Sequence record: MZ291552.2
Reading direction: 5' to 3' (one strand)
From: Escherichia phage vB_EcoM-UFV09
DNA length: 64,000 bases
In this document: in pieces, positions 10,510 to 64,000 of the stretch
Layout of the letters: each line of letters opens with the position of its first letter
Numbering within the stretch: the stretch's first letter is position 1
Position numbers and translations under genes: made by a program
The notes under the pieces: generated by a model
The model's database searches: none
The model's input: only the letters and a program-made list of their open reading frames with translations
What the model was told of the DNA's origin: nothing

Positions 10510-10817
10510 CGTAAATTCCCTGCAATTGGTATACTAACAATACGCCCAGTATCTAAAATTCGCCGATATAATCTTTGTGTGTCTACATCAGGCTTAACGT
10601 GTTTAACTTCTATTTTATTAAACCAAAACTTGCGTGGAGTCTCAACTAGTCTTGGAATTCCCATACCTAAAGCTAGTTTATATTGGTCTTTGAGAGTAGT
10701 AAAAACTCTATCAGCAATCTCTCTTTCAAAAAACACAGCAGGACGATGTTCATCAAGAGGAACTGGCGCAGTAAATCCATCTTTGTCTCGGTAAACTATC
10801 GCATATACATAAACCAT
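10506..10817 (-). CDS. hypothetical protein (dda.1 position)
   Basis: 103-aa ORF. Confidence 0.45.
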   Translation of the reverse strand: MVYVYAIVYRDKDGFTAPVPLDEHRPAVFFEREIADRVFTTLKDQYKLALGMGIPRLVETPRKFWFNKIEVKHVKPDVDTQRLYRRILDTGRIVSIPIAGNLR

Positions 10818-10818
10818 A

Positions 10819-11574
10819 TTATCCTCGGATAAGTTTAAAAATTGAACAATTTAGCGGGTATCCTCTTTTCAGTTTAAGTTTATCAATAAAAGACAAGTTT
10901 TGATACCGCTCTACACCTTGAATAATTTTATCACACATATCATATTGCATTTCTGCTTCTGACAACTTTTTCACAATTTTCCAATCCGAGCCTTTAAGAA
11001 GAACGTTCAGTTTAACAACTTCAGCGCCTTCTGCTATGCGAGAACCATCAATACGAGCTTTAAGTGCTATAATCCTTAGCTTAATGTCAGAGGTCTGTTT
11101 TGATTTAGAAAGCTGAGAAATGTGTTCAATTCGATTTTCACGCTTTTTCTGTATAGCTTTAATTTGATTATAAGTCTTTTTGATTTTAGCCCATTTCTTT
11201 TCATCTAAATTTAGTTTATGAACTTTTTTCGCAGATGAACGACCAATTCGCAAAGCAAATAAATCACGCTTTTCAATCAACTCTTCTAAAGTATAATCAG
11301 AACGAAATGTATTATACTTTTTCTTTACTGCAATAACGTTCCCTTTAATGTATCCAACGTTATTATCAAAACGTTCTAATGATAATTTCTCTCCTTCAAT
11401 ACGATTATCAAAAGGTTCTCCTGAATAGGCACAAACTTTTTGATCTAAAATGTTCTTAATGTAATTGAAGTCTAAGTTAAAATCTTTAGAACGTCTTTTT
11501 GCAGATGCCTGAGTGTGCTCTAAACGACGTTTAATTTTACGAATTTGATTATTAGACATATTATGCAGTTTCAT
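10819..11574 (-). CDS. basic hypothetical protein (srd position)
   Basis: 251 aa, highly basic; position between dda and modA fits T4 srd. Confidence 0.4.
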   Translation of the reverse strand: MKLHNMSNNQIRKIKRRLEHTQASAKRRSKDFNLDFNYIKNILDQKVCAYSGEPFDNRIEGEKLSLERFDNNVGYIKGNVIAVKKKYNTFRSDYTLEELIEKRDLFALRIGRSSAKKVHKLNLDEKKWAKIKKTYNQIKAIQKKRENRIEHISQLSKSKQTSDIKLRIIALKARIDGSRIAEGAEVVKLNVLLKGSDWKIVKKLSEAEMQYDMCDKIIQGVERYQNLSFIDKLKLKRGYPLNCSIFKLIRG

Positions 11575-17353: not shown

Positions 17354-17521
17354 TTTTACTCTTCTTTTTCTTTAGATTCCTCTTTTTTCTTTTTAGGAAT
17401 CTGTTCAGGACCTTTATTTACTACAGCACCTGATGTTGTTCCAGTAGAGATATTTTCAGGATTACCACCTGAATCTCCAGCAACCATATCTTCTTTAATA
17501 AATTCTTTATATGTTTTCATA

Positions 17522-60523: not shown

Positions 60524-60844
60524 TTATTCTTTAAATCTAATCAATTTATTCATAGACTTTGAAACTTCTGTACGAACCTCATGTAGATTTTTGAGTTGTT
60601 CAAGACGCTGCGTATAGTAAGCAATTTCATCTTCTTCGAGACAGTCCTGTGAATCTTCTTTAAGATAGCGTGCATAGTCCTGGAAAGCGTTACGGATTAC
60701 TTCCTGGAAATCATCAAGACTTTGAATTTTCTTAGGAGCAGCAGATACACGACGAGGGGCAGTATAATACTCATAACCAAACCCTGCGCTTAATTGAGCC
60801 ATTAGTATTTTTCCTCTGGTTGGAACACAGCACGACAAGCCCAC
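60524..60844 (-). CDS. hypothetical protein (vs.3 position)
   Basis: 106-aa ORF. Confidence 0.4.
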
Positions 60845-61104
60845 ATACTGGCTTCTTTGAGTTTCGTTTTAGCAATAGTTAACTGATCGAGGCTTTCGGC
60901 GTAATTCTTCGCGAGTTCATCATCTTCACAGCTATCAAATGCTTCCCAAAATTCATCGTATAAAGCATCAAAGATAAGTCCTAAACGAACTTCAGCGTCT
61001 TTAATAGCATTTACTTTACCGATTTTTTCGTCGGTATGTGGCTTATAACCTTTAATATCTTCAATCATATTTGACTTCCTCACCAGTACATAAATCGTAT
61101 TCAA
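60802..61104 (-). CDS. small acidic protein at the vs.4 position (possible Acb2-like sponge, by synteny only)
   Basis: About 90-100 aa, two genes upstream of the GrcA-like gene; Acb2 assignment is positional and unverified. Confidence 0.3.
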
Positions 61105-61651: not shown

Positions 61652-62032
61652 TCAATTAGAAAATAAATTTATCCAAGATTGTTCTTTAATTAAAAATGGC
61701 TCAGAATCATATGCCATTAAACTCTGCGTGATTAGTCCTTTAAAAGGTCCATCAATAAATTCCATGGTAAAATATGGAATTTTATTCATTAGCCGTGCGT
61801 TAGGAGCAGTACATAAAACTCTGCATCCTTTGAATACGCCTTTTTGTAATTTGTATTGCTTAGGATAAAATTCGCTCAAGACGTTGTTATTTGCCAAAAT
61901 TTCAAAATGATTCACCAATTTATTTTTAATAGTTTTTGGCGAAAAATAAAGATATTCGAAAAGTTGCGTGTCTGTCATCATTGCATTCCGATTATGAAAA
62001 ACTGTGGACGAGTAATACCACCAATGCAACAT
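61652..62032 (-). CDS. hypothetical protein
   Basis: 126-aa ORF. Confidence 0.4.
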
Positions 62033-62565
62033 TTAATATTACAGCAGCAGTGTACAGTTTCAATATGGACACTATAAATCTTATCCATATCAGGAGATTT
62101 GACAGGTTCATCAATTATATACAAAATTCGCGAAAGCGATAAACCTCTGAACTTGCTTCCTTTATTACCAATAAAACTGCGCACAGAATCAGCAAATAAA
62201 CGAAAACGTATATCATCATTAGAATAACGCGAAAATTCCTTTTTAATGTTATTTGAAGAAATTTTAGCGTAAGCTGAAGTATTAGAAAGAACAATAACTG
62301 TTCCGCCATCATACAACCAATTAGCGGCAAAATTAGTTACTGCAGTTGATTTACCGGATTGACGTCCACCATCTAGTCGAAGTGTGCAATACTGCTTAAG
62401 TAAGTCTTCAAATGGTGGGATATAATCGTTTTTACAAATTTCTTCTACTCTAGCGTCAGAATGGTGTGTAAAAGCATTCATCAGGGATAGATAAGGACCA
62501 GTTAAAAATGTTCTCATTTTATTCTCTCTAAATTTGGGCCATTCCATGGCGCATGAATTGTCCAT
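61978..62565 (-). CDS. P-loop NTPase
   Basis: 195 aa; Walker A GGRQSGKST, Walker B-like ILYIIDEP. Confidence 0.45.
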   Translation of the reverse strand: MDNSCAMEWPKFRENKMRTFLTGPYLSLMNAFTHHSDARVEEICKNDYIPPFEDLLKQYCTLRLDGGRQSGKSTAVTNFAANWLYDGGTVIVLSNTSAYAKISSNNIKKEFSRYSNDDIRFRLFADSVRSFIGNKGSKFRGLSLSRILYIIDEPVKSPDMDKIYSVHIETVHCCCNIKCCIGGITRPQFFIIGMQ

Positions 62566-62670
62566 TTCTGTATTTACCCATTACCGCACTTGGGCTCGAC
62601 CTTATTACAGGTTGGCGGGAATCCCTCACAGAATCATGAGGTCCAGCTTGTTCCCATATTTCTTATTTGC

Positions 62671-63144
62671 TTATTTGAATGATTTAACGTACTGAATAGA
62701 ACCTTTACTATTCACAAAGGCAATTTTACCATTTTTGTTATACATAGTAGCAGTACGTTGATAGCCATAAGTTTGTTTACCAGATTGATAACCAACTAAT
62801 GCGAAATTATCTTCACCCATTTTATTCTGTTTAGCGCGAATGCGTTCATGACCATGTGCCATAAGAACCTTAGCATCACCAGTTGCAATGGACCGACGAG
62901 TTTTTTCATCTTCAACTGTATTAACAAAGTCGTCAAATGAATCAAATTTAGCATGAGATTTATTATACAGTTTTCCATCTACTGCATAATTATATCCTTG
63001 TACATCCATCTCAACTTCTGTACCATCATCTAATACCGCAGTAATTTTCTGTCCTTTTTTAAATTTCAAAAGATCAGTAAAAGATTCAGCAATAATTTGA
63101 GAATTAATAGCTGCTTCAGTAATAAATTCTTTATACGTTTTCAT
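62671..63144 (-). CDS. internal protein (IP-family, capsid-targeting leader)
   Basis: 157 aa; N-terminal MKTYKEFITEA matches the T4 IP capsid-targeting sequence; located between the vs genes and e. Confidence 0.6.
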   Translation of the reverse strand: MKTYKEFITEAAINSQIIAESFTDLLKFKKGQKITAVLDDGTEVEMDVQGYNYAVDGKLYNKSHAKFDSFDDFVNTVEDEKTRRSIATGDAKVLMAHGHERIRAKQNKMGEDNFALVGYQSGKQTYGYQRTATMYNKNGKIAFVNSKGSIQYVKSFK

Positions 63145-63160
63145 GTGTATCCTTTAATTT

Positions 63161-63478
63161 TTATTCTTTAGGGAAGTTTTTAGAATATGCATCATAAAGC
63201 TTATTTCCAATACGGCGGAAAACTCTAGCCGCAAAACGATTTTCTGGGTTTTTAATCATGATTTGCATCATATAAGTACCCGCGTCAGAAAGAGCTTCTT
63301 CATAGTACCCGTTAATTTCTTTAAGAGTCCTACGTTTACCACCAGGACCATCAACAGTGATTTTCCATTTACCTGTAGAAGTGCGACTTGGCGGTTCAAC
63401 TTGTTCAATCCAGATATAACCGCCTTCTACACGCTGTCCTGCAACAGATTCTGCAATAAATTCTTTATACGTTTTCAT
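63161..63478 (-). CDS. internal protein (IP-family, capsid-targeting leader)
   Basis: 105 aa; N-terminal MKTYKEFIAES; body unrelated to the neighbouring IP. Confidence 0.6.
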   Translation of the reverse strand: MKTYKEFIAESVAGQRVEGGYIWIEQVEPPSRTSTGKWKITVDGPGGKRRTLKEINGYYEEALSDAGTYMMQIMIKNPENRFAARVFRRIGNKLYDAYSKNFPKE

Positions 63479-63516
63479 GTGTTTCCTTTAAATATTTTAA
63501 TTAGTAACTGTGAATA

Positions 63517-63545
63517 TACTATCACAGTTTTAGGAGAAAGTAAAC
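63517..63545 (-). promoter_or_regulatory. early-type promoter downstream of e
   Basis: Minus strand reads GTTTAC, ~18 nt, TAGTAT. Confidence 0.35.
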
Positions 63546-63549
63546 AACT

Positions 63550-64000
<451 letters not shown>

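Follow-up and report, generated by a model that had tools for sequence, protein, structure and literature searches.

Injection together with the phage DNA is known for the internal proteins of bacteriophage T4 (PMC12373910, PMC9391042). Three of them, Ip1, Ip2 and Ip3, each inhibit one distinct GmrSD type IV enzyme, with no cross-protection (Silas et al. 2025, PMC12373910), and IPIII does not need its leader for activity in the cytoplasm (Srikant et al. 2022, PMC9391042). Another leader-bearing protein, Bas37_0260, inhibits McrBC (2025 preprint, bioRxiv 10.1101/2025.11.20.689424). Altogether, five out of five characterised small proteins that bear this leader (T4 Ip1-3 and Bas37_0260 among them) inhibit type IV restriction enzymes, and their bodies are non-homologous. 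Since internal proteins arrive in the cell along with the DNA, ahead of phage gene expression, they decide survival of first-line restriction in each strain, and this restriction role matters for host-range prediction and phage therapy. Protection of incoming DNA from restriction is also a property of the DarA and DarB proteins of P1 and of the Ocr protein of T7. The Dar proteins are likewise packaged into the head and injected, but they are much larger, while Ocr is a DNA mimic made after entry, and both act on type I systems.

Two internal-protein genes downstream of gene e

Here, we analysed a stretch of 64,000 nucleotides of Escherichia phage vB_EcoM-UFV09 (MZ291552.2), further called the window. 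Two genes, ip10 and ip4, lie in tandem immediately downstream of the lysozyme gene e (Table 1). A preceding sequence-only reading had pointed to two ORFs of 157 and 105 aa starting with MKTYKEFI(T/A)E, and both are present in the ORF list as claimed; however, the sizes it gave for the bodies are full lengths, and the bodies that follow the 10-residue leader amount to 147 and 95 aa. The gap between the genes is 16 nt, and a Shine-Dalgarno sequence (AAAGGA) is located 6-7 nt 5' of the ATG in both cases. Region 62400-64000 is 100% identical to that of vB_EcoM-UFV05 and three sister isolates (Tequatrovirus), and 95-97% identical in about 100 further phages, with the ip10-ip4 arrangement conserved. 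The orthologues are annotated as hypothetical in UFV05, and as 'ip10 internal head protein' and 'ipIV internal head protein' in PP01. The observation itself was confirmed as real and not due to chance.

Table 1. Positions of the features discussed in the text.
Feature	Position in the window	Strand	Remarks
gene e (T4 lysozyme), 3' part	63550..64000	minus	continues past the window end
e-ip10 intergenic region	63479..63549	minus	orthologous to the T4 e-ipIII spacer
8-bp hairpin	63506-63529	minus	ACUGUGA..UCACAGU
repeat copy 1	63449..63496	minus	48-nt direct repeat; Shine-Dalgarno and ip10 leader codons (63449-63478)
ip10	63161..63478	minus	ORF, 105 aa, start MKTYKEFIAE
repeat copy 2	63115..63162	minus	48-nt direct repeat; Shine-Dalgarno and ip4 leader codons (63115-63144)
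ip4 (ipIV)	62671..63144	minus	ORF, 157 aa, start MKTYKEFITE
second protease-type motif of Ip4	63085-63093		residues 18-20
cassette block	62660..63445	minus	in place of the T4 ipIII body, ipII and denV (blastn against the T4 locus)
T4-alignable part inside the block	63113-63157		ribosome-binding-site and leader repeat
T4-like flanks	61900-62659, 63446-64000
G+C-richer stretch	62566-62670		105 nt, between ip4 and vs.8
vs.8 region	61978-62629	minus	two ORFs
GTG ORF of the vs.8 region	62528-62629		33 aa
vs.8 orthologue	61978..62565	minus	195-aa ORF; downstream anchor of the cassette locus
vs.4 orthologue	60802-61068	minus	four genes downstream
gene 61.1 orthologue	17356-17520	minus	54 aa, start MKTYKEFIKE...
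Lys5 codons	63464-63466, 63130-63132, 17506-17508		ip10, ip4 and 61.1

Ip4 matched Pfam DUF7412 (PF24183) with 317.8 bits, the gathering cut-off of this family being 27 bits, and its residues 1-157 covered model positions 1-158; it also matched phrog_3155, 'internal virion protein'. It is 99.4% identical to ipIV of phage T2, and the only significant structural match in BFVD was 'Ip4 [Enterobacteria phage K3]' (Q38388, 98% identity). Homologues were found in 470 phage records, at identities of at least 95% in Tequatrovirus and of 61-71% in Klebsiella Jiaodavirus, Salmonella and Serratia phages. The likeness to Ip4/IpIV of K3 and T2 thus comprises 98-99.4% identity, equal length and the position beside gene e. 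The difference from T2 is that ip4 is the sole ip gene at the T2 locus, while here it is preceded by ip10 and its leader carries the Q5K change.

Ip10 matched phrog_3966 (E 1.4e-33), as well as the proteins named Ip10 in SP18, VR20 and VR25, and no Pfam family. Its identity is 98% to the PP01 protein and 70% to that of SP18, with which it shares the leader and from which nothing of note sets it apart; no member of this group has an assigned function. It occurs in 189 phage records, with relatives in Mosigvirus (Bas47, about 97%), Dhakavirus (about 70%) and Karamvirus, i.e., Enterobacter phages (about 50%). A HMMER search with the Ip10 body over 1.84 billion representatives returned one true homologue. 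Matches to FG-GAP, filamin, CBM60, SdrD-B and RTX repeat proteins were considered as distant homology and rejected as spurious, because the folds of these giant proteins are mutually unrelated, different parts of the query were hit, and the scores summed over repeats. Judged by these identities, both genes are not new but already named and catalogued, as Ip4 of K3/T2 and Ip10 of PP01/SP18. Among the internal-protein cassettes that lack an assigned target, Ip4 and Ip10 belong to the most frequent, and finding their targets would either extend the arms race between Ip proteins and type IV enzymes or reveal a new defence.

The Bas47 (Mosigvirus AlbertHofmann) ip10 gene lies at 1201-1515 of its extracted locus, and the identity of about 97% between the two genera points to a recent lateral exchange of the cassette.

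The leader repeat and the interval between e and vs.8

The starts of Ip10 and Ip4 are close variants of the T4 capsid-targeting sequence MKTYQEFIAE; the sequence-only reading had recognised them as capsid-targeting. Eight of the ten leader positions are invariant among Ip4, Ip10, T4 IPII and T4 IPIII. At residues 8-10 both proteins have I-x-E, which conforms to the (L/I)-x-E pattern and, by motif, is a predicted gp21 site. I-x-E is the established cleavage motif of the gp21 prohead protease of T4, for which PMC9391042 cites Mullaney and Black 1996. Every homologue keeps the leader and I-x-E, including those whose bodies are only 50-61% identical. In the DNA, the leader codons belong to a 48-nt direct repeat which spans the ribosome-binding site and the first 10 codons, and which is 90% identical between its copies; the 28-nt exact core occurs twice in the window and in none of 100 shuffles. 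Both copies align with the 5' ends of T4 ipIII and ipII.

Codon 5 of both leaders, and of the gene 61.1 orthologue described below, encodes lysine in place of the glutamine (Gln5) of T4, T2, PP01 and most relatives; apart from this Q5K exchange, Ip4 of UFV05 and Ip4 of T2/PP01 have the same amino-acid sequence. The presence of Lys5 in both leaders, together with the exact identity over 28 nt of the repeat, suggests gene conversion between the leader copies.

By comparing the window with the T4 locus (blastn), we found that ip10 and ip4 fill the slot of T4 ipIII/ipII directly downstream of e. The flanks are 92-94% identical to T4, and a block of 786 nt stands in place of 1440 nt of T4. In the first ip gene, the homology extends through codon 11 and ends precisely there (window 63446); it is regained at window 62659, 11 nt beyond the stop of ip4, a point matched in T4 by the base that follows the denV stop. 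Inside the block, only the ribosome-binding site and leader repeat can be aligned, with the 5' ends of T4 ipII and ipIII. The module common to the first ip gene of T4 (ipIII), T2 (ip4) and the present phage (ip10) consists of the e-proximal spacer, the ribosome-binding site and the leader.

Since T4 homology breaks after codon 11, and since the 48-nt repeat heads both genes, the interval from e to vs.8 is best described as a cassette array with one to four leader-bearing genes depending on the phage. The order is ipIII, ipII, denV in T4, while T2 has ip4 only, and several Tequatroviruses have denV, ip10 and ip4. Bas47 carries a 93-aa leader gene, denV, an 86-aa leader gene, ip10 and an IPII-like gene; Bas45 is alike except for an IPIII-like gene in the last slot, and Klebsiella phage ValerieMcCarty03 has Ip4-like and IPII-like genes. 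Scanning IMG/VR for the leader-coding DNA pattern gave 45 distinct proteins, which, when pooled with the reference proteins (T4 IPII and IPIII, and Ip4, Ip10 and 61.1 of the window), fall into 22 unrelated body families. The conserved 48-nt segment, with which every ip gene begins at its 5' end, probably acts as a recombination site, which would place different sets of bodies in different phages; recombination between the two repeats of this phage would give the T2 arrangement. The ip locus adjacent to e had been called hypervariable in the sequence-only reading. This holds insofar as the cassette content differs among the phages compared, yet the locus which Repoila reportedly described as hypervariable in 1994 is ipI. 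Given that dN/dS is low in both genes, the ip variation proceeds by presence and absence of cassettes and not by fast point evolution.

The denV gene is absent from the e-vs.8 locus and from the entire 64-kb window, and in relatives it follows the ip genes (T4) or lies between e and ip10. By its distribution, denV behaves as another movable cassette of this interval. In ValerieMcCarty03, gp125 (10561-11142 of the extracted locus) is annotated as 'putative IpIII internal head protein' and has no leader; it is probably mis-annotated, as by position and N-terminal sequence it resembles the vs.8 orthologue.

The vs.8 region itself differs from T4 in that its first 32 codons are in another frame, so that vs.8 is represented here by a 33-aa ORF starting with GTG and by a 195-aa ORF. 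The G+C-richer stretch that follows ip4 corresponds, at 94% identity, to the 5' end of the annotated T4 vs.8; it was considered as a tRNA and rejected, as no tRNA and no Rfam match were found in it. Either vs.8 is frameshifted here or the N-terminal extension in T4 is not real, and the latter may be so because PP01 and Bas47 annotate about 180 aa.

As for expression signals, the e-ip10 spacer contains an element resembling a T4 early promoter, GTTTAC...TAGTAT. No TATAAATA late-promoter box was found near or upstream of ip10 and ip4, and a sigma-70 scan upstream of ip10 gave nothing convincing. As there is no canonical late promoter, late expression must be assumed to proceed by read-through or from non-canonical promoters. 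The spacer also contains an 8-bp hairpin which overlaps the -10 part of the early-promoter-like element. The hairpin is retained in the T4 ipIII spacer with a compensatory change of C:G to U:A, and a 14-bp perfect version (z = -6.3) is present in the T4 ipII spacer. Its role could be that of a terminator, or lie in RNA stability or in regulation.

Bodies of Ip4 and Ip10 and their probable processing and packaging

We assessed the relatedness of the bodies by BLASTP. Between Ip4 and Ip10, the alignment covered residues 1-17 only, in agreement with the earlier statement that the bodies are mutually unrelated. Of the four pairings with T4 IPII and IPIII, three aligned over the first 11-14 residues only, and the fourth, Ip4 with IPII, showed a weak identity of 30% across 77 residues, anchored on the common leader. 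Judged by alignment, there is no convincing body homology to the T4 proteins, and in this respect, too, the sequence-only reading was borne out. Searches of PDB sequences, PADLOC and NCBIfam with both proteins gave no significant match, the predicted folds matched no known structure, and no similarity in structure to a solved inhibitor, e.g., IPI*, was detected.

The AF2 model of Ip4 is a compact single domain (pLDDT 79), in which an N-terminal helix of low confidence precedes two strands, three short helices and a sheet of four strands. That of Ip10 is compact and single-domain as well (pLDDT 84), with a short leader helix, three strands, one long helix and a β-hairpin. Within Tequatrovirus, copies of ip4 differ by up to 16 nucleotides and the proteins by 0-1 amino acids (dN/dS 0.04 or less), and dN/dS of ip10 is about 0.13. 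Such values (0-0.13), combined with confident compact folds, argue that both are real genes.

If cleaved after Glu10, Ip10 would yield a mature form of about 95 aa (10.9 kDa, pI 9.6), and Ip4 one of 147 aa, or of 137 aa if cleaved after Glu20 (pI 9.1-9.3). The predicted mature proteins are basic (pI 9.1-9.6), similarly to T4 IPII* and IPIII*. We observed that a second protease-type motif, [ILVM]-x-E-[SA], is conserved at residues 18-20 in 14 of 14 members of the Ip4 family, and that the first 20 or so residues of the model are disordered or of low confidence. A propeptide of 20 residues, instead of 10, is therefore possible for Ip4.

CsCl-purified virions of the Klebsiella phages ValerieMcCarty03/04 yielded 66/66 peptide-spectrum matches for gp127/119, the 'internal virion protein', a count comparable to those of baseplate proteins (PMC13119998). 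The gp127 gene adjoins the lysozyme gene, and its product is 69% identical to Ip4 of the window over the full length. A literature search returned no virion mass spectrometry for Ip10, the papers on the Ip10-carrying phages UFV13 and ECLFM1 having analysed no more than a few gel bands. We regard Ip4 as very probably a genuine packaged internal protein, and Ip10 as probably one. For this phage we infer packaging, processing and injection as follows: the precursors, with their 10-residue leader MKTYKEFIxE, would enter the prohead core by means of the leader, gp21 would remove it after I-x-E (after Glu10, and possibly Glu20 in Ip4), and the small basic mature proteins would be packed alongside the DNA and enter the cell by injection before gene expression begins.

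It may be asked whether one or both proteins are not packaged at all, the leader being a relic of recombination, so that they act only after expression in the cell or have no function. We consider this very improbable. It is true that the virion data concern an Ip4 homologue of Klebsiella phages, and that the element upstream is of the early rather than the late type. However, the leader and I-x-E persist in all homologues, even where only 50-61% of the body is identical, the Ip4 homologue is abundant in purified virions, and purifying selection speaks against a relic.

Candidate functions and targets

The proposal of the sequence-only reading that Ip4 and Ip10 are injected anti-defence effectors agrees with the best-supported function, but it missed the existing gene names and the earlier partial testing of the same hypothesis. 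Anti-defence is the existing working view in the field, and the genes are re-identified here. By analogy with the characterised leader-bearing proteins, we lean towards Ip4 and Ip10 being injected stoichiometric inhibitors of type IV restriction nucleases; for the target being a type IV restriction enzyme, we put the chances at roughly even. Analogy of function across non-homologous bodies is a weak inference. Each injected Ip would inhibit, stoichiometrically and specifically, one modification-dependent (type IV) nuclease, which would otherwise cut glucosyl-hydroxymethylcytosine DNA. No enzymatic domain or fold was detected in either protein, which fits a binder, and as both are basic they would not be DNA mimics, unlike Ocr.

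With T4 IPII and IPIII (Ip2 and Ip3, inhibitors of GmrSD-ECOR21 and GmrSD-ECOR17), the two proteins have in common the locus, the module of promoter, ribosome-binding site and leader, the size range and the basic charge, and packaging and processing are presumed to be alike. The difference is that T2, a carrier of Ip4, leaves the enzymes targeted by Ip2 and Ip3 unblocked. T4 IPI* (an inhibitor of GmrSD-CT596) and Bas37_0260 (of McrBC) are also leader-bearing, injected, single-domain proteins with dedicated type IV targets; they differ in being encoded at the separate ipI locus, outside the window, and no fold resemblance of Ip4 or Ip10 to solved inhibitors was detected. Bas37, the HIDEN-SEQ phage, was considered as a carrier of ip10/ip4 for fitness data and rejected, since the three carriers with checked locus tags are Bas40, Bas45 and Bas47; fitness data on the two genes were thus not found.

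Genes named ip4-10 showed no reproducible inhibition when assayed against a GmrSD panel, their match to Ip4 and Ip10 being by name alone (PMC12373910, Supp. Fig. 9). The panel comprised about 8 active variants from a family of very large diversity (PMC12373910). T2, which encodes Ip4 between e and vs.8, is restricted by GmrSD-ECOR17 and GmrSD-ECOR21 (PMC12373910). Thus, insofar as the names link the panel to our genes, the targets of Ip4 and Ip10 are not these enzymes. The same results suit a reading in which the proteins are packaged and injected but have a target other than a type IV enzyme, e.g., a DNA-glycosylase defence against glucosyl-hmC DNA, other early immunity, or host takeover. Their bodies have neither sequence nor fold in common with Ip1-3, and packaged T4 proteins such as Alt have roles other than in restriction. 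Since all five small internal proteins of known function with this leader inhibit type IV enzymes, and since the panel sampled so little of the GmrSD diversity, we find such a target rather unlikely. Because the named genes failed against every GmrSD variant tested, it is also conceivable, though again doubtful, that Ip4 and/or Ip10 counteract another first-line defence, perhaps an undescribed one, directed at glucosyl-hmC phages; candidates include a DNA glycosylase, a non-GmrSD family of modification-dependent nucleases, or a sensor of injected DNA or protein. If this were true, the cassettes in 470 and 189 phage genomes would be ready-made probes for finding that defence.

Each T4 head contains hundreds of copies of internal proteins. 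This, along with the small size and basic character of Ip4 and Ip10 (pI 9.1-9.6), would agree with proteins that serve the head core mainly in a structural or physical way, taking part in prohead scaffolding or neutralising and condensing DNA without any specific host target. A generic role of charge, however, fails to explain 22 or more unrelated bodies behind one leader, and it leaves without explanation both the purifying selection on specific folded bodies and the variation by presence and absence of cassettes; moreover, T4 can do without its ip genes, and their phenotypes are specific ones of anti-defence. We judge a mainly structural role improbable, and inhibition of type IV nucleases by the injected proteins is the reading that we retain.

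A third ORF with a start resembling the capsid-targeting sequence was observed elsewhere in the window. It is the orthologue of gene 61.1, which lies directly upstream of the primase gene 61, in the dmd/tifA/adfA 'anti-TA island', and matches about 1400 records of T4-like phages. Residues 2-38 of its product align with residues 57-93 of the T4 major capsid protein gp23 (43% identity, E 4e-9), a stretch which we take to span the gp21 maturation cleavage site (FLTE/AEIGGD, the stroke marking the cut) and the N-arm of mature gp23. The 61.1 product may be packaged as a peptide or serve as a capsid decoy; a literature search on it returned nothing.

Finally, the vs.4 orthologue lies four genes downstream; in all homologous loci it contains the Acb2/Tad1 hairpin domain (PF24729), and it is presumably the anti-CBASS cyclic-nucleotide sponge Acb2. 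With this domain present in vs.4, the stretch from e to regB would mix several counter-defence genes.
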